A stretch of DNA of 64,000 nucleotides from a virus: the IMG/VR virus record IMGVR_UViG_3300023276_001265. One strand, written 5' to 3'. The notes below the pieces were generated by a model that was not told the origin of the DNA, did not search any database, and saw only the letters and a list, made by a program, of their open reading frames with translations. This document shows, piece by piece, positions 1,920 to 48,144 of this stretch. Made by a program: the position numbers and the translations under genes. How positions within the stretch are numbered: position 1 is the first letter of the stretch; each line of letters starts with the position of its first letter.

Positions 1920-3611
1920 ATGGACATGCTAGTAGGAACCAACGACGACGGAAGTGACTTCACGGTCAAAGCCAGTGATCTGCTGACGCACGGCGTCATT
2001 CTAGGCCGCACCGGATCTGGTAAGACCGGAGCCACGGTCACCACTGTCGAGAACGCCGTCATGAGCGGTGCGTCGGCGATTATCCTCGACCCCAAGGGCG
2101 ACCTGACTAACCTCGCTCTGGTATTCCCCGACCTCGCCGCTGAGGATTTCGCTCCTTGGTCTGAGGAAGGCTCGGACTCTGAGAAGATCGCCGAGAAGGC
2201 TCAGAAAGAGCTTGGTCACCTTGCCCCTAACGTCCGTGTCTGGAAAGACGCGGCTGATGTCACGATCTACGCCCCTGGCAAGACCCACGGAGGCGGTAAG
2301 CCCATCAACGTCCTCGCCTCCTTCGGCGCTCCAACTGGAACATTTAACGATCAGTCCCTCCGAGACCGTGCCTCGGCTGTCGTGTCCTCGGTCCTGAGCG
2401 CAGTCGGACACGGCGCTGACCCTCTCACCGATCCGGCCAATGTCTTCATGACTGATGTCATGGTCAATTCTTGGAAGAACGGTAAAGGATTCCCAATGGA
2501 GGAATGGGCGACGACGCTCACTGACCCTCCTGCCGAGTTCCAAGTCATTGATGGACTTCCGATCAACGATTTCTTCCCCAAGAAGGATCGCCTAAAGATC
2601 GCACGTGCGGTCGTCGGCTTTCGTCGCCAGGCCACCAAGTGGCTGGACGGTGAGGCTCTGTCCATTGAGAGCTACATCGGTATCAACAAGCCAAAGGTCT
2701 CAGTCTTCACCATGCGCCACCTCAACGAGGGTGAGCGTAAGTTCTTCGCAGCAATGCTCCTGTCGGCAATCGTGGACTACATGTTCCGCGCTCCGGCCAG
2801 CAACAAGCTGAAGCTACTGGTCGTCCTTGACGAGGCCCGTGGCTACCTGCCTCCATACCCGCTCAACCCTCCGACCAAGAAGCCGATCTGCACCCTCCTG
2901 GCGCAGGCCCGTGCCCACGGCATCGGTATTCTGATCGGGACGCAGAACCCAAACGACCTGGACTACAAAGCCCTCACTAACGTCGGCACCTGGTTCCTGG
3001 GCAAGCTGCGTGAGCGTGACTGCGCCCGTGACCTCAAGCGTGAGCTCTCGGTCCGCAATGTTGATCGGGACATTCTGTCCACGGTTCCGCAGCAACACTT
3101 CCTGGTGCTCAAGAAAGACGGCACCCACAGTCTGGCCAAGATCCGCTGGGCCTACAGCTACCTCCGTGGACCGTTGAGCGGTCAGGAGCTTCTCCGCCTG
3201 GAGGACTCTGTCCAGACCTCCTTCAAGCCTGTCCAGACCTCCGTCAAGCCCGTCAAGCCCTCCTACAAGGCGTCGTCTGCAGCCGCTCAGGTGTTTGAGG
3301 GCAGCGGTGACGTTCGCATCAACTTCGTCCTGACCGATCGCAAGTCAGGAGGGTCTACGGTAGTCGTAGAGCATTCCATCAATGGCGGCGATAGCTGGAG
3401 GTCGTCTCGTATCAAGAACAAGTCCAAGAGTTACGGGTCAACCCCTTTCGGTCAGAGACATACGGTGGTGTGGAACACGATCAAGGACGTGGGCCGCAAG
3501 AACGTGACAGCGCTGGTGCGCCTGAAGATCAACGGTCAAATCTCTCAGCACTACTCGGTGTTCAAGGTGAACAACACGAGGATTAGCCGCTTCTCGTCGC
3601 TGTTCTCCTAA
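1920..3611 (+). CDS. HerA/FtsK-superfamily (DUF87-like) P-loop ATPase with beta-rich C-terminal domain
   Basis: THGVILGRTGSGKT (Walker A), ILDPKGD, LVVLDEA (Walker B), QARAHGIGILIGTQNP. Confidence 0.85.
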   Translation: MDMLVGTNDDGSDFTVKASDLLTHGVILGRTGSGKTGATVTTVENAVMSGASAIILDPKGDLTNLALVFPDLAAEDFAPWSEEGSDSEKIAEKAQKELGHLAPNVRVWKDAADVTIYAPGKTHGGGKPINVLASFGAPTGTFNDQSLRDRASAVVSSVLSAVGHGADPLTDPANVFMTDVMVNSWKNGKGFPMEEWATTLTDPPAEFQVIDGLPINDFFPKKDRLKIARAVVGFRRQATKWLDGEALSIESYIGINKPKVSVFTMRHLNEGERKFFAAMLLSAIVDYMFRAPASNKLKLLVVLDEARGYLPPYPLNPPTKKPICTLLAQARAHGIGILIGTQNPNDLDYKALTNVGTWFLGKLRERDCARDLKRELSVRNVDRDILSTVPQQHFLVLKKDGTHSLAKIRWAYSYLRGPLSGQELLRLEDSVQTSFKPVQTSVKPVKPSYKASSAAAQVFEGSGDVRINFVLTDRKSGGSTVVVEHSINGGDSWRSSRIKNKSKSYGSTPFGQRHTVVWNTIKDVGRKNVTALVRLKINGQISQHYSVFKVNNTRISRFSSLFS

Positions 3612-3656: not shown

Positions 3657-6600
3657 ATGTCAGACGCACGACTAAGGGACGCTGAGAGACGCTGGAGCGA
3701 GACCGGGGCGGACGATGATCTGTCAGTCCTCGTAATCGCCAGGAAACGTGCAGGACTTGAGATCCCTTATGGGATGCGAGTCCGCATGACGAAGCTGTTC
3801 TCAACCTTAGGTAAAAACAAGCGTGGCCTGGAAGAGTTCCGCCACAAGACCTCGGGAATGATCTTCGTGATGATTCCTGCTGGCGAGTTCATGATGGGCC
3901 GAAACGATGAGGACACTCCCCAGCAGAGGAGAGAGTTCGCTGTTGGAGTGCACCAAGTGCTGGATGTCGCGCCCCAGCAGAGGAGAGAGTTCGCTGAACC
4001 GTTCCTGGTCGCCAAGTATCCATGGACAGGGCGTGAGTGGTATCGGACCACAGGGGAGTTCCCCTCTCATTTCCCCACACGGGCGATGATGGACGAGTGG
4101 ATGCCAGTCGCAATCCCAGAAGACGCCACCTACGGCCCTGAAATCCGCATGGAGGCTATCGACAGCGATGGAAAGAGATGGGGAGACCACCCCGTCGAGT
4201 CCGTCTCGTGGGACCGTTGTCGCCAAGTCGAGGATCACATCAATAGGGTTGACTTCGTCCGTCAGTTCAATGCCCGATTCCTCCTCAAGAATGACCTAAA
4301 GGAACACGCATGGGTCAATTGGGTCGATTACACCCACGGACTCGCTTCAATCAATCTATCTCCAGCGAAGCTCAGACCTGATGGAGAGGTGGTGCTTCCA
4401 CACTTCGCAGGACTGGTCTTCACTGATGAGGTCGAGAGCCTCTACCAGGGCTGGCTCTGGAACGAGGACAACGAGCGTGCTGGCTTCCAGCTGCCGACCG
4501 AGTCGATGTGGGAATATGCGGCCCGTGCAGGGACAACAACTCGCTACCCCAACGGGGACACGGACGAGGACCTAGCGAAGATCGCCTGGTTCGGCGGTGA
4601 CTGGGATGATGGTCACAAGGCTGTCGGCCTGAAAGATGACAACAACTGGGGCCTCCACGATAACTGCGGCAACGTGTTCGAGTGGACTCGCTGCATGTGG
4701 CGTCAAACGGTCGAGGAAAACCCAGTGAACGGCTTCCTCGCAGTAGGGGAAGAATGCTCGGACCCTACGGTTACGGAATACCTCTGCGATTCATCGATCC
4801 AGGAACGTGTATCCGTACAATTAGCCGCTCCGCCCTTACCTCCTTCGAACGAGGATGGCAGTCAATCCAGCAACAACCCACAGACCTCGGAGTCCGACCC
4901 TGCTGGAGAGCAAAGTAGCCCGGACCCTACCCCAGTTTCACCCTCAGAGGGGGTGACTGGATCGTCGGAGCAGGGGTCCTCTGCATCAAGAGGCACACCG
5001 ACTACGCCCCTCACTACTACTGGGGAACCCGATCAGCCTGGAGGGGAAGGTGAACCTGGTTTTTTCGGCCAGACCCCTGCGGAGAGATCAAGCTCTCCGA
5101 CGGAGGGCTCTGCAACATCAGTAGTGCCCCAGGGGGCGGTCGATACTTCGACCAGATCTACGGGCGCTACGCAAGGTTCAGAATCCTCAAGTCCGTCTGC
5201 TGGACTCACAGCCTCAGCTGGAGAGAGCGGACCGCAAGTTTCAGGGACCTCCTCTGGAGAACCAGTCATCAGTCCCACGTCAGCACCCGACCAGTCTGGC
5301 GAGGACGATAGCTCGGATTTTACCCAGACAGCATCTTCGTCGGAAGCGATGGGTGGGCAGACCCAGCCTGCTCCGTCGACTTCAGTAGGGGATGCTACGA
5401 CCGAGACCAATACGACCCCAGCGGCGGGGTTAGGCCAACTTGGAGAGGACGGTAGCCCGGATTTTTCACAAACTTCGTCTATTCAGACGACCCCGACATC
5501 GCCTACTTCCAGAGAAACCTCCACAGGTCCCTCTTCGGACCAGTCCCAGACAGGTGGGTCACACGCGGAGGAGACTTCCACGACGCAGGACCCAACCGCC
5601 GGGGCGTCGAGCCTAGTAGTCGATGCTACGCAGGTGGACACCGACTCTCCTGGCGAGGACGATAGCTCGGACCCTACGCATGGCTCGGATACGTCCCTGA
5701 GTCGAGATTCTACTCCGCAGGAGTCGGAACTTACTACCAGCCCCCACGGGACGAATACCGATGCGGATGCAACGCCTGTAACCCAGGAGGACACCGGGCC
5801 GCAGGCACCAGGATCTTCTGGAGAGGGCGTTAGCTCGGATTTTCCTCAAGGTGGACAGTCCACCGAGATCCAACCTTCCCCCCAAACGAGTTCGCCCTCA
5901 GAGGGCGGCAAGGGTCTTCTTTCCTCGATTCAGGGTTCATCTACGCCTCCTACGTCCCACTTGAGGTCAGCGCGACCTACGCAGAAAACGGCCGATACAT
6001 CAAAGGAAACATCTGGGACACCTTGGAAGGAGAAGAGAACATCTTCTCCACAGGAGAACGATCTTCCAGACAGCGATACATCATCCTCGGCTCACAAGGA
6101 CTCCGACCGGCCTGGAGGTGCCGGTGACGCTGTCCCTTTAGCCTTAAGGAGCGTGTCGACCAGCTCCTCGGAACACTCACCATCGACAACAGCGCCTTCG
6201 AGGACAACTTCAAGTATCAAGCCAAGTATGGAGACGCCTTCCGGCAGGTCTACGCAGCAGACGACATCAGGCTCACCCAACAGTTCTACACCGACAACTG
6301 GATGGCCGAGGGAACAGTCATCATCAAGGGAGGACATTGGAACTCGTCCGCAAGTCAACTCACCATCGCCTGGGACGACCCAACCGACCCAGACGACTCC
6401 TACGGGGAGTGGGGACTCAGACCAGCCTGGAGAATTCGGTAGTGCTGTCCCTTTAGCCTTGCGGAGCGAGTCATTCCGCTCCTCAGAGACGGCTTCCTCC
6501 GAGAACGACTCGCCGAGGTCAACGACTATCTCACCGAGGTCAGGCACAGAGCTTTCTCCTCCCATGACACATCAAGAGTCATCGTCGTCCGAAGCTCGGG

Positions 6601-8255
6601 GCAACACATGCCGATCGCCGCAGGACCTTGCCCCAGACATCGATCCGGAGGTGCCAGGGCTGAATGCACCTCACCCAGAGCAGCCTGGCGGAGCCGTTAG
6701 CTCGGATTTTCCTCAAGGGTCGCAGCCATGTCCCAGCGCATCTTTGATCTCACAAGACGACAAGACGATAGCTGGCTCGTCGTCAGTCCAGAGATCGCAA
6801 GAGAGCTTAGACACGTCTACGACCACAGAGCCGACAGAATGCTCAGAGGAGGCTTCTTCAACTCCGACACCAGAGACCAGTTCGAGGATGGATGGGACAT
6901 CTGGTCTCTCGATCCCGATCTTCCCGACCGTATCGCTGGGCTCAGGCTCACCTGGCGAGCGAGGTGATTCGGATTTTCCCCCGTCGCCTTCATTGGAAGA
7001 GGGGGTGGAAAGACTGAGGTCCTCGGGCTTAACCTCTTCGCCTCCATCATTGATGTCGCAAATTTCGGATTCCCCAGACTCGACAAGGTCCTCAGAAACC
7101 ACGCCTGGTTCGACCTCCCAGAATTCAGCAGGTGGCGACAACACTCCTGCACAGATGGAGAGGACGACGGATTCAGAGCCTCCTGGAGAGGGCGGTGATT
7201 CGGATTTTCCGTTGACGACCCCCTCGCTCTCCTACGAGGAGGCGCCTGGGGCGCAGGATCCATCACCCCAATCGATGAACACCACCCATGGGTCGATGAC
7301 TGGGCGCTCGACCGGGATCTCCCAGACGAGACCGCAGGAGGGCGACCAGCCTGGAGAGGGAGGTGATTCGGATTTTCCCCAAGGGCCTTCCTCCACTACT
7401 ACGTTCCCCAGGACTCAGACACCTGGGAGGCCTGGGAGTGGACCGGCGGATCAGAGCTCATGTCAATCAGCCAACGAAGCAGAGTCCACATCAAGGGAGG
7501 AAGCTACTACTCCAACGCCGACACCACACCAAGCCCAACCGTCTGTAGCCGATCCTACGAATACACAGTCGCCACTGGAGCGGGGAGTTGGATCGGACTC
7601 CGATCAGCCTGGAGAGGGAGGTGATTCGGATTTTCCGTTGGGGAGTTCACTCGCTTCGACATCCCTTCCTTCAGTAACTTCTGGGCCACCACCGTCGCAT
7701 CCCGACTCCCCACTGGACCAACCATCATCGTCAGAGCCCCAAGCTGGCAGTGCGACACAGGAGACTGCCTTATCAGAGATCCTCGCTGGGCTGAGGAGCG
7801 AGATGACAACATCTCCCCAAGAGCGGCCTGGAGGTGCCGCAGACCCTGATACCTTTCCAGGTGGACTCGGACCGCATATTGATAAGTGGGCTCCTCTCCT
7901 CTCCGGCATTGATGAGACCTGGACCCGGACAGTCGCAGCAGCCATGCTCGAAAACGAATCAAGACATCTACAGCGTCTCCAGTCTGAGGTCGATGGAGAG
8001 GGCGTCGGCCCCTTTCTCCAATACGCCCTCCCTCTCATCAGACGGGCCAGTCCTCTCAACTTTCCCTACGTCCAGCCCATGCTCGGACCCATCGGAGGAA
8101 TGGCCTTCTACAGACCGGATCTCGCCCGTAGAAGAGACCCCATTGAGCGAGGAGGAAGTTGGTACGAGGACACCGGCGTTCTCGGACTTGATGAGAGAGG
8201 GGCTTCTGGTGCCATCAGCTCCAGAGGGCATCGACCTGCATGGCGCTCCCGGTAG
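3657..8255 (+). CDS. FGE-sulfatase (SUMF1/C-type-lectin fold) domain protein; zero-frame read-through product of a cassette array
   Basis: FVMIPAGEFMMG, HPVESVSW, FQLPTESMWEYAARAG, NNWGLHDNCGNVFEW; the closing RGGSW...GHRPAWR motif appears only about 1100 aa later; the intervening region is S/T/P/G-rich; GGAGG RBS. Confidence 0.9.
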   Translation: MSDARLRDAERRWSETGADDDLSVLVIARKRAGLEIPYGMRVRMTKLFSTLGKNKRGLEEFRHKTSGMIFVMIPAGEFMMGRNDEDTPQQRREFAVGVHQVLDVAPQQRREFAEPFLVAKYPWTGREWYRTTGEFPSHFPTRAMMDEWMPVAIPEDATYGPEIRMEAIDSDGKRWGDHPVESVSWDRCRQVEDHINRVDFVRQFNARFLLKNDLKEHAWVNWVDYTHGLASINLSPAKLRPDGEVVLPHFAGLVFTDEVESLYQGWLWNEDNERAGFQLPTESMWEYAARAGTTTRYPNGDTDEDLAKIAWFGGDWDDGHKAVGLKDDNNWGLHDNCGNVFEWTRCMWRQTVEENPVNGFLAVGEECSDPTVTEYLCDSSIQERVSVQLAAPPLPPSNEDGSQSSNNPQTSESDPAGEQSSPDPTPVSPSEGVTGSSEQGSSASRGTPTTPLTTTGEPDQPGGEGEPGFFGQTPAERSSSPTEGSATSVVPQGAVDTSTRSTGATQGSESSSPSAGLTASAGESGPQVSGTSSGEPVISPTSAPDQSGEDDSSDFTQTASSSEAMGGQTQPAPSTSVGDATTETNTTPAAGLGQLGEDGSPDFSQTSSIQTTPTSPTSRETSTGPSSDQSQTGGSHAEETSTTQDPTAGASSLVVDATQVDTDSPGEDDSSDPTHGSDTSLSRDSTPQESELTTSPHGTNTDADATPVTQEDTGPQAPGSSGEGVSSDFPQGGQSTEIQPSPQTSSPSEGGKGLLSSIQGSSTPPTSHLRSARPTQKTADTSKETSGTPWKEKRTSSPQENDLPDSDTSSSAHKDSDRPGGAGDAVPLALRSVSTSSSEHSPSTTAPSRTTSSIKPSMETPSGRSTQQTTSGSPNSSTPTTGWPREQSSSREDIGTRPQVNSPSPGTTQPTQTTPTGSGDSDQPGEFGSAVPLALRSESFRSSETASSENDSPRSTTISPRSGTELSPPMTHQESSSSEARGNTCRSPQDLAPDIDPEVPGLNAPHPEQPGGAVSSDFPQGSQPCPSASLISQDDKTIAGSSSVQRSQESLDTSTTTEPTECSEEASSTPTPETSSRMDGTSGLSIPIFPTVSLGSGSPGERGDSDFPPSPSLEEGVERLRSSGLTSSPPSLMSQISDSPDSTRSSETTPGSTSQNSAGGDNTPAQMERTTDSEPPGEGGDSDFPLTTPSLSYEEAPGAQDPSPQSMNTTHGSMTGRSTGISQTRPQEGDQPGEGGDSDFPQGPSSTTTFPRTQTPGRPGSGPADQSSCQSANEAESTSREEATTPTPTPHQAQPSVADPTNTQSPLERGVGSDSDQPGEGGDSDFPLGSSLASTSLPSVTSGPPPSHPDSPLDQPSSSEPQAGSATQETALSEILAGLRSEMTTSPQERPGGAADPDTFPGGLGPHIDKWAPLLSGIDETWTRTVAAAMLENESRHLQRLQSEVDGEGVGPFLQYALPLIRRASPLNFPYVQPMLGPIGGMAFYRPDLARRRDPIERGGSWYEDTGVLGLDERGASGAISSRGHRPAWRSR
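3918..3996 (+). repeat. 25-bp exact direct repeat (PQQRREFA x2)
   Basis: CCCCAGCAGAGGAGAGAGTTCGCTG at 3918-3942 and 3972-3996. Confidence 0.9.
4760..7849 (+). other. array of 14 alternative FGE C-terminal cassettes in the -1 frame
   Basis: Heptamer-to-stop coordinates: 4760-4918, 4922-5053, 5060-5311, 5315-5455, 5459-5665, 5669-5833, 5837-6127, 6134-6442, 6449-6700, 6704-6967, 6971-7198, 7202-7366, 7370-7624, 7628-7849. All end R-x-x-W-R-x-(R/K) (e.g. GLRPAWRIR*, GVRPTWRGR*, GFRASWRGR*); many have an RGGxW-like motif (LRGGDW, IKGGHW, LRGGAW, IKGGSY, TRGGDF, LRGGFF). Confidence 0.9.
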
Positions 8256-8565
8256 CATCGTCGTCAATGTACACGACGAGGTGCTTGTTGGACTTCCTGC
8301 GGACACCATGATCGGAGTTAGCATCAGTGGTCACATTCATCACCTCACCAATCAGTTCCGGCTAACCTCATTTGACTTCGTAGCTAGTCCTCCAGTGGCT
8401 GGGGCTTATCCCCGACTCGTCCCTCCCAGAACATCGCTACACACTTCATTAGGTGGAACCTGGTTTGAGGTCTTCCACAGAAGGTCAATTCCACGTTCTA
8501 GCTCTGGGGCTTTTCCAGTCTGTCGCAACCAATGGTCGACCCGGCCTTGCTGGCGTTCACGTTAA
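8254..8565 (+). other. 16th FGE C-terminal cassette, in the +1 frame
   Basis: 3' part of ORF 7834-8565: SLGGTWF...WSTRPCWRSR*, the same terminal signature as the other cassettes. Confidence 0.75.
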
Positions 8566-31764: not shown

Positions 31765-31820
31765 ATGGTCGGGCAAAAACGATATCAGCGGCAGCGGTAG
31801 AATGGTTGAGAGGAGGCCGG

Positions 31821-34800
31821 GTGGCAAAGAAGAAGAAGAAGCTGAAGCCGAAGTACAAGGATGAGCTATGGGATCCAACTGACCTTTGCGAGATCAGCCC
31901 AGAGGAGCTTATTGAAGCCGTAAAGGCTGAGGGTGCATATAGTTACGATCTTGAGACAACTGGGCTGTCCCCCCGCAAAGACCGAATAGACGGCATTGCC
32001 TTCTACGTCCCCAACGAGAAGAATCCAGAGCGTAAGCCGATCCGGGCGTGGTTCCCGTTCGCTGATGGAACAATGGACCACACTGTCGAAGGTGGCAAGG
32101 TAGTCGCGCTCCGGGCGACACTAGACCAGTTCGACACAATGACTCGCCTACGTCCAATTTGGGGACTCAAAGACGTAATCGCGATCCGGCACAACGGGAT
32201 CTTCGATGACGCATTCATCTACCTATCAAGCGGTCTCGATGAAAACATCATTGTCGAGAACATCATCGCCGACAGTATGCTCGCCGACTATGTCGCCGAC
32301 GAACGACGTAAGCGTTATGGATTGAAATTGCGGGTCGAACAGGTGTTCGGGCACAAGATGACCTCATATAAGGAGGCTGCGGCCGGACAGGCCTCGTTCG
32401 CGTTCGCCATGAAGAAGCCCCTTGGCGTCTACGCTTGTGACGATACGGCGTGGACCTACCGTCTCTGGCGCTGGGCCATGGAGTCGATCCGGAAACAGGA
32501 TCCTCCGCGAGAGCACAAGGATCAGTGGTGTTCTCCGCTAGACGATACGCCTGGAATCTACAGCGACCTGGAGAAGGTCTTCTGGAAGATTGAAATGAGA
32601 ATCCAGCGGATCCTCATGGAGATGGAGATCACTGGCTGCTTCATCGATTGGGAGTGGTTGGTCGTCGTCCAAGAACGGCTGCAGAAGCAGAAGAAGACAA
32701 TTGAGGAGGAGATCAAGGAGGAATACGGTTGGATGCCGAAGATTCGGTCGCCAAAGCAGACCTCAGACTTCCTCTACAACCCGGTCGACAAAGGTGGCAT
32801 CGGGCTCCCGACCCAAGGTGTCGATTACAACGCGGTCACGGACCAATACGCGACCGGTGACAAGGCGATTAAGCACAGGGCGAGGGAATTCCCCGTCGTT
32901 GCAAAGATCCTCAAATACAGGTCCCTAGGCGTTGTCGAGAGCTCGTTCTGTCAGAAGCTAATCGGACTGGCCCAGGCAGAGACCAGGATCTACGCACGCT
33001 TCAGGCAGACCGGCACGGTCATCGGTCGTCTGAGTTGTCTTTCCGGAATGTCAATGCTCTCTATACGCCTGAATGGGGCGAATCTAAGGCGTTTAGTCAA
33101 ACTCTCAGAACTTGGTCAGTTTATCGGATCTGATGTTAGGATCATCACTCATAAGGGTCGTGAGCGCCGCGTGTTGAATCTGTTCAACAAGGGGCCAGGC
33201 CTGATGTTTGAGGTGGTGGCGGATGACGGCAGCAAAATCAGATGCACAAGAGACCACAAATTTTTCACCAACTCCGGGTGGCGTGCTCTCAAGGACATCA
33301 AACGAGGGGACAGACTGCTTCGAGCCGAGGTATGTGAGGCTCAGGAAGCCGATAAGAGGCAGGCGGTGGGTGCTGGATCGACCGTCGTTCTTCAAGGTGT
33401 TCGTGGACGACAAGAGGCCGGTTTACAAGAAGTCGAAAATCTATGGTCTGACGGATGGGATTGCACTCACGTGCAAGGCGATCTACGGCTGGGAGATCGA
33501 TGTGTTCCGAGGCCGTTCGAGGCGACGTCCGGACTTAGACGAGATACTTCCACTTGCACCGACATGGGTGCGACGAGACAAGTGCAAAGGCTTCATACTC
33601 TCCAGGGAGTCGTTCAAGGAGATCTTCGTAGACAGCGACCTGACGCAGGAGAAGGCGAAGAAGACCTACGGGATATCTCACCAGGCCATGATCCGGGCCG
33701 TGAAGACTTACAAGGAGTTCCACGACCCACTGGCGATGAAGCACGGACGACTCCTGAGCGCGGCCAAACGGAAGGAGGAGGCGTTCTTTCCAAAGTCGGC
33801 TTTGGTGGAGGAGATGTCAGAGGGGAGATCCCCTCAAGAGATCGCGGCCAAGTTCGGCGTGGGGGAGTCGATTATTTTGATGGACATGTACCACCACGGA
33901 GTATCCGCGAACCCTCACGGAACCATGTCGTGGGTGAGCCGATTGACGGACAGCGAGTACTTGGCACTGGTCGCACTGAACCCACGAATAGGAGAGCTTC
34001 CAACGGACCCGAAGATGGCTTTCACCGAGCTGGTGGAGGCCTATCAGAGGCTGATGCAACTAGCCCACTCGGTCAAGCAGAGCGGATCGATCATGGGGGC
34101 GTTGATCGAGAGGGGGACGATCGAGAAGGATCATCTAACGTTCGCTTCAAATCGGGCGGAGATGAGGCTGTCCCGTGCGCTGACGGCGGTTGGAATCCAG
34201 CATCGGCGACTATTCCATTTCTACAAGAACTGGCAGGCCGACTTCGCCTGGATAGATCAGAAACTACTGGTCGAGGTAGATGGCGCGTGGCACCAGAAGT
34301 GTGCTGCTACCAAGGATCGGGATCAGAAGAAGACAAAGAAGGCGAAGGAGCTTGGTTACCGAGTAGTGAGGTTCACCACCAAGCAGGTCGACAAGAACCT
34401 TCCTACGGTGATTCGGGAGATCGCGTTCGAACTTGGACACGAGTTACCAGCATCACTCCAGTCAGCGTCGAAGATGTCTGGGACCTCACCGTAGAGGGGG
34501 ATCACAGTTATCTAGCTCACGGGTTTGTCAACAAAAACAGTGCGGACCCCGTCAACCTGATGAACCAGCCACGAGAAAAGGACCTGATCCGCAAGGCGTT
34601 CTGCGCTCACCTTGAAGATGACTACGACGATGATCGCAACGAGCTAACGCTGATCGATGCTGACTACGGGCAAATGGAACTGCGCATGGCAGCTCACCTC
34701 GCCCGTGAGAAGAACATGATCGAGGTCTTCTCGGCGGTTGATGGGTGTGAGGCTGGTCCCGACGGTGGTCCGTGCGAGCGATACACGTTCCACGAGTGCT

Positions 34801-36743
34801 TCGCCTGTCACACGTGCCAGCCTCCAATTGAGCTCCCTGACGGCACCATGTCCTGCATTAAGTGCGGGGCTACAGGAGGAGACATTGAACATCAGAAGCG
34901 GTGTCGTCACGTAGATCCTCACCAGCGAACGTCAGAGGACGTAGGCGTCCCTCGAAACCCTCTCGCTAAGTGTTTAGACGGGTCAACGCTGCTTCTGGGC
35001 ATGCAGCCCGGTAATGGCAAGTGTTGGATTCAACCAACGACGATTGAGGACTTGGTGGGCGATATCGAGCCCAACGAACATCGACACGTGCCTGTGACCA
35101 CCGTGACGACATCTGAGGGGCTGGCCACGGCTCACACTGCGCTCAAGCGTCACAACAAGCAGACGAAGATCATCATTACTAGACGCGCTATTGTGATTGC
35201 TACCGTCGATCATAGGTTCCAGGTGCTCGGAGAGCATGGAGCGTTAGACCCTAACACGCCGAGTTATGTGCACGTTCCTGGGCGCAGCCTTGTAGAGGCC
35301 CAAAACCTCGAAAAGGGTATGAAGCTCCCCTTCATCGATATGGGGCATGAACAATCGATGGACCCCATGTGGCACCAGACAGGTCGTCATGGTGCGCTGG
35401 AGATCAATCCGTTCACCAAGGAGGTCCAGGAGGGAGGACCGGCCACCATCGTCCTTGATGAGAAGTGGGCCTACTTTGCAGGAATCTTCGCCGGGGACGG
35501 CTGCGCGTCCGGAAACTCGTGTTCCATCTCTCACGGACATACGCCGGAATACAAGGAGTGGCGGGACACAGTTCGAGAGGCTTGTGATGCCGTAGGGCTT
35601 CCCACCTCAATGCGAGGGGACAAGCGTCAGACAGCGATCGGCTCACGCGTCGTTCGTCGCTACCTCTCTGGTCTGAGGATCTGTGAGGAACTCGGCAAGG
35701 GTGACCAGGGCGCGAAGATCATGCGTGTCCCGCCGTGGGTCCTCAGTGGCGGACCGAAGATGATGTGGTCCTACATCGCTGGCATCTTCGATACCGATGG
35801 AACGGTCGGTAAAAAGAAGGCTGGGACGGCCAGCTTCACTACGAAGTCCCCCGAATTCGCCGGTCAAATGGCCTTCATGCTTCGCTGGCTTGGGATGCCT
35901 GTCCTCTGCCAGCCAGGGTTCAACAAGACCTACGAGCGGTGGTACTACACGGTTCATGTTTTGGGAGAGGGTATTGAGCGGTTCGCTCGACACTGCCCAA
36001 TGCGGCTCAAGGAGAAGGTTGACCGGCTCCACGAGAGGGCCGCAACTATCAAGCGTAAGTGTGCACCTACTAACGATGAGGTGATTGCCGTCATTGATGG
36101 CGGCGAACGGACGGTCTACGACTTCCAGATCGACACGGAGGACCACCTCTACAATCAGGGCGGCTTGGTCGGTCACAATAATGCTAATTTCGGACTTTTG
36201 TACAGAATGGGTGCGCCAAAGTTCTGCGTGTATGCAGGGTTGTTTGATGAGGACGGCAAGCCCCGTGTCGGCTACGGACAAGAGTTGATCGAGAAGTGGC
36301 ACGCGGCTTACCCTGGCATCGCTGCTTGGCACGAGCGGGTTCTTCATCAGCTGTGCGTCGACAACTACATCGCCTACACCATTACGAGACGCAGACGTCG
36401 CCTCGACATTGAGTGGAAGAAGAACGATTACCGGGCAGGAACCCAGGCCATTCAGTTCAAGGTTTCAGGCAGCTGCCAGGACCTCATCAAGCTGGCCATG
36501 ATCAAGCTCTTCGAGGTGCGGAATCAAAAGGTCGCGAACACGCCTCCAGCTGAGTCGCGGCTCTGGAAGAAGTTCCGCTTCATGATCCAGGTCCACGACG
36601 AGTTGATCTTCGAAGGTCCGAAGGCGATGAAAGAGGAGCTCTGCCTCCTGGTCAAGGAGTGCATGGAGGGCGCAGCCAAGGGCATGCGTATTCCCTTCGT
36701 CGCTGATGCGCGGGCCGGGAGGACCTGGGATGAGCTACACTAG
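31821..36743 (+). CDS. polA: family A DNA polymerase with 3'-5' exonuclease and two inteins
   Basis: DLETTG, HNGIFD, YACDD; GTVIGRLS|S, motif A DADYGQMELR, motif B AK|NANFGLLY, motif C QVHDE; AGGAGG RBS before GTG at 31821. Confidence 0.95.
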   Translation: MAKKKKKLKPKYKDELWDPTDLCEISPEELIEAVKAEGAYSYDLETTGLSPRKDRIDGIAFYVPNEKNPERKPIRAWFPFADGTMDHTVEGGKVVALRATLDQFDTMTRLRPIWGLKDVIAIRHNGIFDDAFIYLSSGLDENIIVENIIADSMLADYVADERRKRYGLKLRVEQVFGHKMTSYKEAAAGQASFAFAMKKPLGVYACDDTAWTYRLWRWAMESIRKQDPPREHKDQWCSPLDDTPGIYSDLEKVFWKIEMRIQRILMEMEITGCFIDWEWLVVVQERLQKQKKTIEEEIKEEYGWMPKIRSPKQTSDFLYNPVDKGGIGLPTQGVDYNAVTDQYATGDKAIKHRAREFPVVAKILKYRSLGVVESSFCQKLIGLAQAETRIYARFRQTGTVIGRLSCLSGMSMLSIRLNGANLRRLVKLSELGQFIGSDVRIITHKGRERRVLNLFNKGPGLMFEVVADDGSKIRCTRDHKFFTNSGWRALKDIKRGDRLLRAEVCEAQEADKRQAVGAGSTVVLQGVRGRQEAGLQEVENLWSDGWDCTHVQGDLRLGDRCVPRPFEATSGLRRDTSTCTDMGATRQVQRLHTLQGVVQGDLRRQRPDAGEGEEDLRDISPGHDPGREDLQGVPRPTGDEARTTPERGQTEGGGVLSKVGFGGGDVRGEIPSRDRGQVRRGGVDYFDGHVPPRSIREPSRNHVVGEPIDGQRVLGTGRTEPTNRRASNGPEDGFHRAGGGLSEADATSPLGQAERIDHGGVDREGDDREGSSNVRFKSGGDEAVPCADGGWNPASATIPFLQELAGRLRLDRSETTGRGRWRVAPEVCCYQGSGSEEDKEGEGAWLPSSEVHHQAGRQEPSYGDSGDRVRTWTRVTSITPVSVEDVWDLTVEGDHSYLAHGFVNKNSADPVNLMNQPREKDLIRKAFCAHLEDDYDDDRNELTLIDADYGQMELRMAAHLAREKNMIEVFSAVDGCEAGPDGGPCERYTFHECFACHTCQPPIELPDGTMSCIKCGATGGDIEHQKRCRHVDPHQRTSEDVGVPRNPLAKCLDGSTLLLGMQPGNGKCWIQPTTIEDLVGDIEPNEHRHVPVTTVTTSEGLATAHTALKRHNKQTKIIITRRAIVIATVDHRFQVLGEHGALDPNTPSYVHVPGRSLVEAQNLEKGMKLPFIDMGHEQSMDPMWHQTGRHGALEINPFTKEVQEGGPATIVLDEKWAYFAGIFAGDGCASGNSCSISHGHTPEYKEWRDTVREACDAVGLPTSMRGDKRQTAIGSRVVRRYLSGLRICEELGKGDQGAKIMRVPPWVLSGGPKMMWSYIAGIFDTDGTVGKKKAGTASFTTKSPEFAGQMAFMLRWLGMPVLCQPGFNKTYERWYYTVHVLGEGIERFARHCPMRLKEKVDRLHERAATIKRKCAPTNDEVIAVIDGGERTVYDFQIDTEDHLYNQGGLVGHNNANFGLLYRMGAPKFCVYAGLFDEDGKPRVGYGQELIEKWHAAYPGIAAWHERVLHQLCVDNYIAYTITRRRRRLDIEWKKNDYRAGTQAIQFKVSGSCQDLIKLAMIKLFEVRNQKVANTPPAESRLWKKFRFMIQVHDELIFEGPKAMKEELCLLVKECMEGAAKGMRIPFVADARAGRTWDELH
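33036..34538 (+). mobile_element. intein 1 in polymerase (501 aa)
   Basis: Begins CLSG after GRLS; block B CTRDHKF; ends VWDLTVEGDHSYLAHGFVNKN|S (Lys at the penultimate position). Confidence 0.9.
33334..34494 (+). CDS. DUF559/Vsr-like endonuclease nested in the +1 frame of intein 1
   Basis: SNRAEMRL...ADFAWIDQKLLVEVDGAWH...DQKK..KAKELGYRVVRF, HTH-like segments upstream; frame open from 33208, start uncertain. Confidence 0.8.
   Translation: MRLRKPIRGRRWVLDRPSFFKVFVDDKRPVYKKSKIYGLTDGIALTCKAIYGWEIDVFRGRSRRRPDLDEILPLAPTWVRRDKCKGFILSRESFKEIFVDSDLTQEKAKKTYGISHQAMIRAVKTYKEFHDPLAMKHGRLLSAAKRKEEAFFPKSALVEEMSEGRSPQEIAAKFGVGESIILMDMYHHGVSANPHGTMSWVSRLTDSEYLALVALNPRIGELPTDPKMAFTELVEAYQRLMQLAHSVKQSGSIMGALIERGTIEKDHLTFASNRAEMRLSRALTAVGIQHRRLFHFYKNWQADFAWIDQKLLVEVDGAWHQKCAATKDRDQKKTKKAKELGYRVVRFTTKQVDKNLPTVIREIAFELGHELPASLQSASKMSGTSP
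34971..36179 (+). mobile_element. intein 2 in polymerase with LAGLIDADG endonuclease (403 aa)
   Basis: CLDG..., ATVDHRF, FAGIFAGDG and IAGIFDTDG, VYDFQI...GLVGHN. Confidence 0.9.
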
Positions 36744-46974: not shown

Positions 46975-47100
46975 GGAAAAATAGCTTTTAGTCAACTGCG
47001 GCCAAAACCGCTTGCCCGATGACGAGCTTCAAGGCCGGTTAACAGCAGCCCACGGCCTGGTGACCGTAAATTTGTTCCTGACATTGAGCGCGGCATTCTT
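46971..47100 (-). ncRNA. putative omegaRNA with guide
   Basis: IS605-like right end (GCAAGC...CAGTTGAC, ending at 46991) downstream of tnpB; the guide would be about 46990-46971. Confidence 0.4.
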
Positions 47101-48144
47101 GCTCATCGGACTTTCGTTGCCACACGAATCGCAGAGGAAGGTGTGTTTTGTGATGCTCCCAGAAGCTCCACAAAGCGAGCACCTCTTCTCGTTACCGGAT
47201 ACGTTCACGTAATAAACCGGTATCGCCGCAGCCGCAGCCTTCTCTTCAATCCTACGACGAAGCACTTCATAGAAGTGCGGCCTCATCGATGGCTTGCTTC
47301 TTTTCCTCTTCGAAGGTGGAGGGATGCGAAGGTCCTCGATGACGAGGATTGATCCGCTTCCAACCCACTCAACGAGTCGGTTAGCTGCTGCGTGGCAAAA
47401 AGTCCTAGTTCGCATGTGACGCCGTCTGCTTAGCCGTTTGAGGACTCGACGCACAGAACGCGTCTCAAGTCCATCTGCCTTACGCACAGCCAGTCGCCGC
47501 TCAAGTCTTCTCTTTGTTTTTCGGCTTGTCTCCTCCATTACATTCTGAGCAACGGTGACGATTCGGAGAGATTTCCCCTCGGCGCTTACCGCTGCTACTT
47601 CATTCTTACTCCCTACTGCAACGCCAGCAGGAAGGGTTCCTTCTCGTTTTGATTCTTTAAGAGTCACGGACACGGTCGCTACGAGTCGTCCCCTTTTAAG
47701 GGAGACCGCGAGTGTGTCGAAGGACTTCACGTTTTTATAGTCAGCCTCGAACCGGGCTGGAATGCTGCAAGGTATGTCCTTACGGCCCGCAATTGTCCAA
47801 ATTCTGATCGTCTCTTTACGGGGTGGGCAGGCATCGCGCTTTGCCTTGCCGATCAAGAATAGGGCGCGTGGCTTACTGAAGTGAATCGGCCCATATATCC
47901 TCCGGTTTCTCCTCCGAGCGCGTGAGTATTCAGATGCCACCGATCGAATAGCAGTGCATGTGAGCTGAGATTTCAGAGAGCCTTTCACTTTTGCGTAGCT
48001 GAGCTGATGCATATCTACTGCGGAAAGCGCGGTTCCGTCTTCAAACGCAATCTCAGACACGCGCTCTTGGATGAGTCTGAATGACTCAATTGTTGCCATA
48101 AGATCAGCGTCGTTGGCAATCCTAAGTGGAAGCACTTTCTGCAT
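47029..48144 (-). CDS. tnpB: TnpB-family protein, predicted nuclease-dead
   Basis: TnpB layout with VIEDL and CxxC..CxxC; RuvC-I reads GVAVG (no Asp) and RuvC-III reads MSKNAA (no Asp); no tnpA nearby. Confidence 0.85.
   Translation of the reverse strand: MQKVLPLRIANDADLMATIESFRLIQERVSEIAFEDGTALSAVDMHQLSYAKVKGSLKSQLTCTAIRSVASEYSRARRRNRRIYGPIHFSKPRALFLIGKAKRDACPPRKETIRIWTIAGRKDIPCSIPARFEADYKNVKSFDTLAVSLKRGRLVATVSVTLKESKREGTLPAGVAVGSKNEVAAVSAEGKSLRIVTVAQNVMEETSRKTKRRLERRLAVRKADGLETRSVRRVLKRLSRRRHMRTRTFCHAAANRLVEWVGSGSILVIEDLRIPPPSKRKRSKPSMRPHFYEVLRRRIEEKAAAAAIPVYYVNVSGNEKRCSLCGASGSITKHTFLCDSCGNESPMSKNAALNVRNKFTVTRPWAAVNRP

Follow-up and report, generated by a model that had tools for sequence, protein, structure and literature searches.

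We analyzed a 64,000-nucleotide (nt) stretch of viral DNA, IMG/VR record IMGVR_UViG_3300023276_001265 (hereafter, the window), which comes from a large tailed phage with portal, tail sheath, DnaB, and primase genes on a contig of 157.5 kb. The subject is a single open reading frame (ORF) at 3657-8255, which starts with a constant FGE-sulfatase domain and continues through a Ser/Thr/Pro/Gly-rich linker of ~1,025 codons. The domain lacks its C-terminal strands, the match ending at position 208 of the 255-position model. In the -1 frame, the same linker is split into 14 segments of 44-104 codons each (hereafter, cassettes), all of which terminate with an Arg-x-x-Trp-Arg motif followed by a stop, and the zero frame ends with the same closing motif. 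Cassette 1 is itself out of frame with the constant region, such that a frame change would be needed from the first cassette onward.

The initial annotation had placed a slippery heptamer of X_XXY_YYZ geometry at the head of each -1 cassette. All 14 heptamers were recovered at their coordinates (Table 1), each in the phase of the ORF (14/14), and the 13 internal ones did lie shortly after the preceding -1 stop, at a distance of 3 nt in 10 sites and 6 nt in 3. When the same heptamer classes were counted in 10,288 codons of control genes, they were evenly spread over the three phases (12/12/13), while the ~1,040 codons of the array held 15 in phase and 0 + 0 in the other phases, the 15th being a G_GAC_CCA within cassette 5. 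Since the 14 junctions are homologous direct repeats and hence not 14 independent observations, this count overstates the case, and the comparison across related loci is the real test.

Table 1. The cassette gene and its upstream neighbor in the window; shift sites are candidates, each listed with the -1 cassette that it would open.
Feature	Coordinates	Strand	Remarks
HerA-like ATPase gene, upstream neighbor	1920..3611	+	Syntenic in the T4-like lineage only; context rather than an established member
Zero-frame ORF, 1532 aa	3657..8255	+	Constant FGE/C-type-lectin N-part, ~1025-aa linker, cassette 15
Constant region, FGE-sulfatase domain	3657..4766	+	PF03781, E 5.6e-19, model positions 5-208 of 255
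Site 1 G_GAC_CCT, cassette 1	4760..4918	+	Would give an isoform of ~420 aa; no Shine-Dalgarno consensus run
Site 2 G_GAC_CCT, cassette 2	4922..5053	+	
Site 3 T_TTT_TTC, cassette 3	5060..5311	+	Ribonucleotide-reductase-like fragment (weak)
Site 4 G_GAT_TTT, cassette 4	5315..5455	+	
Site 5 G_GAT_TTT, cassette 5	5459..5665	+	Portal-like fragment (weak); in-phase G_GAC_CCA at 5588
Site 6 G_GAC_CCT, cassette 6	5669..5833	+	
Site 7 G_GAT_TTT, cassette 7	5837..6127	+	Fragment of T4-like major capsid protein, C-terminal region, E 1.7e-9 (vs capsid protein of relative G001)
Site 8 C_CCT_TTA, cassette 8	6134..6442	+	Carries insert
Site 9 C_CCT_TTA, cassette 9	6449..6700	+	
Site 10 G_GAT_TTT, cassette 10	6704..6967	+	Internal major-capsid-protein fragment, family profile independent E value (iE) 5e-7
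Site 11 G_GAT_TTT, cassette 11	6971..7198	+	Family matches putative-terminase ORF of G001, iE 2e-5 (identity unconfirmed)
Site 12 G_GAT_TTT, cassette 12	7202..7366	+	
Example Shine-Dalgarno-like tract on Trp-Arg-Gly-Arg-stop codons	7353..7366	+	Cores ~12 and ~6 nt before site 13
Site 13 G_GAT_TTT, cassette 13	7370..7624	+	
Site 14 G_GAT_TTT, cassette 14	7628..7849	+	
Open +1 frame ending in cassette 16	7807..8565	+	Crosses cassette 15; prohead-protease fragment and terminal motif
Candidate +1 shift site TTT_C (zero-frame Phe codon)	7854..7857	+	Conservation in relatives: see text
Cassette 15, frame 0, putative default ending	7884..8255	+	Major capsid protein N-terminal fragment, then FGE-type terminal motif

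Homology searches added 18 distinct loci of the same design, with 2-16 cassettes of varying number and order and in at least three gene neighborhoods. In the simplest of these (L013, L014, L111, and L112), each -1 cassette follows a G_GAC_CCN and is a textbook FGE C-terminus. Diversity-generating retroelements (DGRs) mutate the C-terminal segment of their FGE and C-type lectin (CLec) targets (PMC5758913), so that the cassettes would be alternative forms of this segment. No heptamer-led cassette fused in frame straight to the constant region was found among the loci examined. A motif scan of 143 other FGE loci, drawn from both genomes and metagenomes, found no such array; three hits among them represent one Accumulibacter-type layout, and the two that were read are ordinary DGRs. 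Two control contigs of Accumulibacter type (L034 and L125) carry an ordinary DGR with a variable repeat, an avd-like gene, and an Asn-rich template repeat past the FGE gene; they were the only loci in which this true DGR layout was seen. Two other loci show rearrangement: in L005 (1522-2330), the constant FGE end appears to be duplicated in frame, with the first cassette shifted ~260 codons downstream, and L112 (7470-7830) differs in cassette content from its near-identical sister genes in L116 and L014.

Over all loci, 141 sites were collected, comprising 64 G_GAC_CCT, 38 C_CCT_TTH, 28 G_GAT_TTT, and 11 others. Almost without exception, the bases after GAC are CC and those after GAT are TT. 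Of the 90 Gly-Phe, Gly-Pro, Pro-Phe, or Phe-Phe pairs at the junctions, 89 are slip-compatible (GGA allowed as XXX), while inside cassettes a Gly-Phe pair has the TTT ending in only 2 of 43 cases and Pro-Phe is never written CCC-TTT (0/15). Judged by this codon choice, selection on the heptamers acts at synonymous positions. In addition, homologous cassettes swap heptamer type, and the family of capsid C-terminal cassettes has five different heptamers. Together, the codon pairing and the type swaps bear out the proposal of the initial annotation that slipperiness, rather than one DNA crossover sequence, is conserved. Sites with CCC as the second codon lie toward the 5' end of the arrays (mean rank 0.26) and TTT types toward the 3' end (0.66), a separation exceeding all 5,000 permutations. 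This order fits a tuning in which weak sites come early and strong sites late, which could set isoform ratios; it also fits a simple age order, and the loci share ancestry.

We also analyzed the stop codons in each frame. The zero frame of the window array contains no stop, compared with 17.5 expected when the cassettes were recoded synonymously with the codon usage of the window (P ~2.5e-8). Over 13 loci, there were 0 zero-frame stops vs. ~131 expected, as against 182 vs. 186.5 in the third frame, counts that overstate independence in that nine loci were chosen as long proteins and ancestry is shared; the zero frame was open as well in L001 and six other loci that came from motif scans blind to ORF length. 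Among homologous cassette pairs, identity was 0.68 in the -1 frame and 0.57 in frame 0, and it was the third positions of the -1 frame that changed most (0.33 vs. 0.25 and 0.21). The -1 frame is thus the better conserved one, and frame 0 behaves as a linker that needs only to stay open. As read from these substitution and stop patterns, the zero frame is under selection to remain open and the -1 cassettes are under coding selection.

The initial annotation further described a Shine-Dalgarno (SD)-like tract in front of every cassette, with GGAGGTG at the -1 stop as an example. Mean pairing to the anti-SD upstream of the sites was -9.6 kcal/mol, against an array value of -5.0 and a value of -6.7 for synonymously recoded sequence, and individual tracts in the window varied from -5.8 to -14.7 kcal/mol. 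An SD run at 8-15 nt was present at 84% of junctions with a 3-nt spacer and 71% of those with a 9-nt spacer, the internal site classes giving 84%, 100%, and 71% against a background of 19%; the description thus applies to most internal sites. When aligned, the spacing peaked at 12 nt (with 6 and 10 nt as well) at 3-nt-spacer junctions and at 12-13 nt at 9-nt-spacer junctions, where the run is supplied by different codons. The SD distance known for -1 shifting is 9-14 nt (PMC5009743). Since both the spacing peak and this range point to the GGAG run 12-13 nt upstream, the GGAGGTG that touches the stop, only ~6 nt from the site, is probably not the working element. Folding of the 3' flank, the check suggested for stimulatory hairpins, gave a modest enrichment (mean z -0.76 to -0.87 vs. 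-0.10 in the control), and only 16-17% of sites scored z < -2.

Two endings lie outside the span covered by the initial annotation, namely, cassette 15 in the zero frame and cassette 16 in the +1 frame. In the six tested loci that keep an intact last cassette, a zero-frame TTT_C stands 5-11 nt past the last -1 stop, and the +1 frame leading to that cassette has 0 stops vs. 18.4 expected. L113 is a seventh locus with TTT_C, so that the site is present in each of the 7 loci in which a capsid-fragment cassette is followed by an intact last cassette in the +1 frame. L003 instead carries TTT_T together with a blocking stop, and its end is decayed; in L004, both the site and the cassette are missing. 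UUU_Y is known to be prone to +1 shifting, and the TTT_C at 7854 matches such sites of influenza PA-X (UCC_UUU_CGU) and Yersinia YopN-TyeA in its tetranucleotide (PMC5009743). Unlike in PA-X and YopN-TyeA, the shift at 7854 would skip one cassette to reach the last, in a gene otherwise shifting -1; an SD at 3-nt distance was not noted at this TTT_C. As an entry to the +1 frame, a second -1 shift in cassette 14 was rejected, as no such site is conserved, while TTT_C is. How a +1 offset can arise is illustrated by L112, where a 10-nt duplication took a -1 cassette into frame 0 and the last cassette to +1, there without an evident shift site. Elsewhere in the window, a 428-aa ORF with nuclease-like motifs (33208-34494, + strand) occupies the +1 frame of the intein region of polA (31806-36743); at 429 codons, it was the sole long open +1 frame among the control genes.

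To trace the cargo of the cassettes, we used as reference the proteins of the relative G001 (89% complete). Several regions of the T4-like major capsid protein were matched (window cassettes 15, 7, and 10), most clearly by cassette 15, which is 41% identical to the G001 major capsid protein over 111 aa (E 3e-23). Two regions of the prohead protease were also matched (family iE 4e-9 and 1.5e-8), cassette 16 reaching E 1.4e-4 on its own and 1.5e-8 as a family iE. Weaker matches were to portal (0.03), ribonucleotide reductase (0.05; PHROG 0.013), and putative terminase (2e-5); the G001 ORF read as terminase large subunit was not confirmed in identity by Pfam, PHROG, or PDB. In the cassette homology searches, no source was found for cassettes 1, 2, 4, 6, 8, 9, 12, 13, and 14, and the list of cargo is biased in that conserved motifs are easiest to detect. 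The terminal cassette of G001 itself is only 29% identical to the G001 capsid protein, and the captured fragments are, by their divergence, old. Separately, G001 carries at ~174 kb (L011 1420-2430, - strand) a second, shortened major-capsid-protein paralogue of 336 aa, far from the head genes, and in a phage of a different gene neighborhood, the terminal cassette of L110 (7457-7739) appears by eye to contain another capsid-like fragment.

Predicted structures were then considered. In the AlphaFold model of a natural zero-frame product, P0126, residues 332-431 were disordered and the last segment had a predicted local distance difference test score (pLDDT) above 90; residues 58-478 of this model aligned with the DGR target TvpA at Z 29.7 (root-mean-square deviation 2.8, 247 aligned). 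For P0011, the last motif reached pLDDT 88 past ~500 disordered residues, with a low-confidence insert. When the window constant part and cassette 7 were predicted as two chains, the score was 0.56 vs. 0.01 for the best control, which lends weak support to an association; with scores of up to 0.60, the mark was reached by 7 of 80 solved complexes and by both passing mismatches of 110. The contacts were not reproducible (runs agreeing in at least 0%), the partner had a pLDDT of about 30 (at least 27), and the score may stem from likeness to solved FGE structures.

Together, these results support the notion that one mRNA encodes the constant N-part of an FGE/C-type-lectin-fold domain and, behind it, a series of C-terminal segments that can replace one another. 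Ribosomes would translate the open zero frame, and at each heptamer a fraction would shift -1, with assistance from the SD-like run 12-13 nt upstream at most internal sites and, to a modest extent, from a 3' hairpin. A ribosome that slipped would translate one cassette and stop, the cassette supplying the missing last strands of the fold, while unslipped ribosomes would continue via the disordered Ser/Thr/Pro linker to the following site. Those that never slip would finish in cassette 15, and a +1 slip at TTT_C (7854) would lead to cassette 16. The predicted outcome is ~16 proteins of ~420 to ~1,640 aa with a common scaffold, which would fold across long linkers and differ in the DGR-type variable segment. 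Serial programmed -1 ribosomal frameshifting that picks one ending per ribosome would account for the open frame, the signal at the codon level, the spacing of the SD, and the fold. We therefore infer this mechanism and put the probability of this reading, which is built on sequence comparison, at roughly 0.75.

Several points weigh against serial frameshifting. Besides the limited independence of the stop counts, the stops expected in the window drop to 3.3 (P 0.04) if the cassettes' own codon usage is applied, although this usage already disfavors the codons that make stops (Leu CTC 81% vs. 33%). The first and long-spacer sites have an SD run in 24% of cases, the background level (19%), and include site 4760, which is without a 4-nt SD-consensus run in the 30 nt upstream; several window sites are likewise without stable 3' structure. 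Three of the heptamers had been listed as known -1 sites, of which only G_GAU_UUU could be confirmed, and its status rests on a plant virus, not bacterial ribosomes. G_GAC_CCU, which had been called non-canonical, was not found in the available part of the main frameshifting review (PMC5009743); within the family, it is no outlier, being both ancestral and more frequent than any other site type. In addition, tRNA-Asp re-pairs only imperfectly on GGA. The design also burdens an isoform with as many as 1,000 linker residues, a cost without explanation, and some arrays have decayed (L111, L117, and the end of L003).

Among the other explanations, transcriptional slippage, in which RNA polymerase would add one base per site and give the same isoforms, predicts the open zero frame and the in-phase sites equally well. 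Programmed transcriptional slippage needs a long homopolymer run for realignment of the RNA-DNA hybrid. Runs of T4-T6 or T4C4 type do occur at some sites, and a phage or host polymerase could follow unusual slippage rules; however, the runs are only 3-6 nt long (3 nt at G_GAC_CCT and C_CCT_TTA), conservation ends exactly at the two-codon geometry, and a 12-13-nt SD spacing is a signal for ribosomes, which makes slippage by the polymerase improbable. Switching at the DNA level, with the cassettes as silent donors activated by indels, gene conversion, or recombination between junction repeats, is to us no more probable. It would accord with the variation in cassette number and order, with junctions that are direct repeats, with the reframing of two cassettes by the 10-nt duplication in L112, and with the template repeats that sit out of frame behind FGE genes in control DGRs. 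Yet a crossover between junction repeats in register cannot bring a cassette into frame, and silent donors require neither an open zero frame nor slip-compatible synonymous codons nor an SD. A DGR, moreover, has a reverse transcriptase gene and a template repeat that departs from the variable repeat at adenine positions. No reverse transcriptase was found in G001 (no PF00078 match at 89% completeness) and no reverse transcriptase motif in the window or eight loci; no Asn-rich template motif was seen in the window, nor an avd gene; the cassettes are mutually divergent, of varying length, and not adenine-rich templates, and no recombinase is adjacent. Recombination and indels clearly also reshape the array over time and would coexist with frameshifting.

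Alternatively, only the long zero-frame protein may matter, for example, as a flexible stalk, with the -1 cassettes as relics of tandem duplication. Its product is indeed a complete ORF with its own terminal cassette, foldable by AlphaFold, but in homologous cassettes it is the -1 frame, not frame 0, that is the better conserved. The -1 frame also retains the terminal motif and stop and encodes recognizable protein fragments, and the heptamers are selected at synonymous positions; we regard this explanation as highly improbable. Re-initiation, by which the cassettes would be separate small peptides made from the SD beside each stop and completing the domain in trans, could draw on the strong SD core ~6 nt before each cassette start and on the weakly supported two-chain model, but the cassette frame offers no start codon at its junctions (the codons there vary among Leu, Phe, Pro, Arg, and others) and heptamers and open zero frame are left unexplained, so that it is the least probable of the four. 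Stop-codon reassignment was ruled out, as TAG and TGA both close cassettes at the same motif, and ribosome hopping between GGA codons would leave both the open zero frame and the sites of CCC and TTT type unexplained.

The array lies beside HerA-like, helix-turn-helix, and DnaB genes in the window, and the HerA-like gene is absent beside L013, L014, L110, and L111. Promoter and terminator scans gave nothing exceeding chance. The constant region contains a 34-nt direct repeat (3909-3996; 88% identical, 54 nt apart), a short in-frame duplication that relatives do not have, and, at 47029-48144 (+ strand), a TnpB-like ORF was seen by eye amid virion genes.

Bacterial immune systems such as CapRel, Lit, Thoeris, and CBASS are triggered by capsid proteins and the prohead protease (PMC11312562). 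In multicellular bacteria, FGE domains have been proposed to act as sensors (PMC10907252). Since the cassettes carry pieces of both of these phage proteins, a role of the displayed fragments as decoys for host sensors is plausible; it is speculative, and we lean somewhat against it. They may instead interfere with the assembly of competing phages, or the array may plainly have captured local DNA as variable loops. The full proposition, in which 14 -1 shifts, mostly at a new G_GAC_CCU class of site and rising from weak to strong along the gene, and one +1 shift yield ~16 lectin-fold isoforms per infection that display captured and recoded capsid, protease, portal, terminase, and ribonucleotide reductase pieces as a decoy library, is a little more doubtful still.

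If serial frameshifting is correct, all variants would be made at once from one mRNA, akin to alternative splicing with mutually exclusive exons achieved by frameshift, and the design would add a third way of making variable lectin-fold proteins to retroelement mutagenesis and DNA inversion. The 141 natural sites offer material for probing which heptamers, SD spacings, and hairpins function on bacterial ribosomes; they include G_GAC_CCU, a site that the usual frameshift scans would pass over. Because annotation pipelines report nothing of such an array but its zero-frame "low-complexity" protein, many arrays of this kind may have been overlooked, and the capsid and protease fragments provide a testable link to how phages handle immune sensing of structural proteins.

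In literature searches, with most subscription papers outside their reach, we found no description of a frameshift-selected cassette array; the type of signal itself is known. With SD-stimulated -1 frameshifting in Escherichia coli dnaX and in IS elements such as IS911, where a 3' hairpin is often present, the array shares an in-phase X_XXY_YYZ, an SD-like run within 9-14 nt upstream at most internal sites, and a predicted alternative C-terminus (PMC5009743). In dnaX and IS911, one site gives two products, while here there are 14 serial, mutually alternative sites. Bacterial -1 heptamers are typically A-rich, and G_GAC_CCU, G_GAU_UUU, and C_CCU_UUH are not of that type. Many frame changes per gene also occur in Euplotes and in mitochondrial genes with 10-12 shifts (PMC5009743), but there all shifts are passed in series for one protein, whereas here each would end in a different variant. 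A constant N-terminus joined to one of many variable segments is likewise found in shufflons, invertible tail-fiber cassettes, and Dscam exons. Shufflons and invertible cassettes rely on DNA inversion by an adjacent recombinase, with inverted crossover sites and cassettes lying in either orientation, and Dscam on mutually exclusive exons chosen by splicing. Unlike these, the cassettes here stand head to tail on one strand as direct repeats, with no adjacent recombinase and no splicing, and skipped cassettes would be translated out of frame as linker. Closest in product are the FGE/CLec targets of DGRs, TvpA and Mtd (PMC5758913), with which the array shares the fold and the same varied C-terminal segment, the cassettes of its simple relatives resembling the CLec variable regions of DGR targets. 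Unlike in DGRs, the variants are stored side by side and would be chosen in translation rather than written into DNA.

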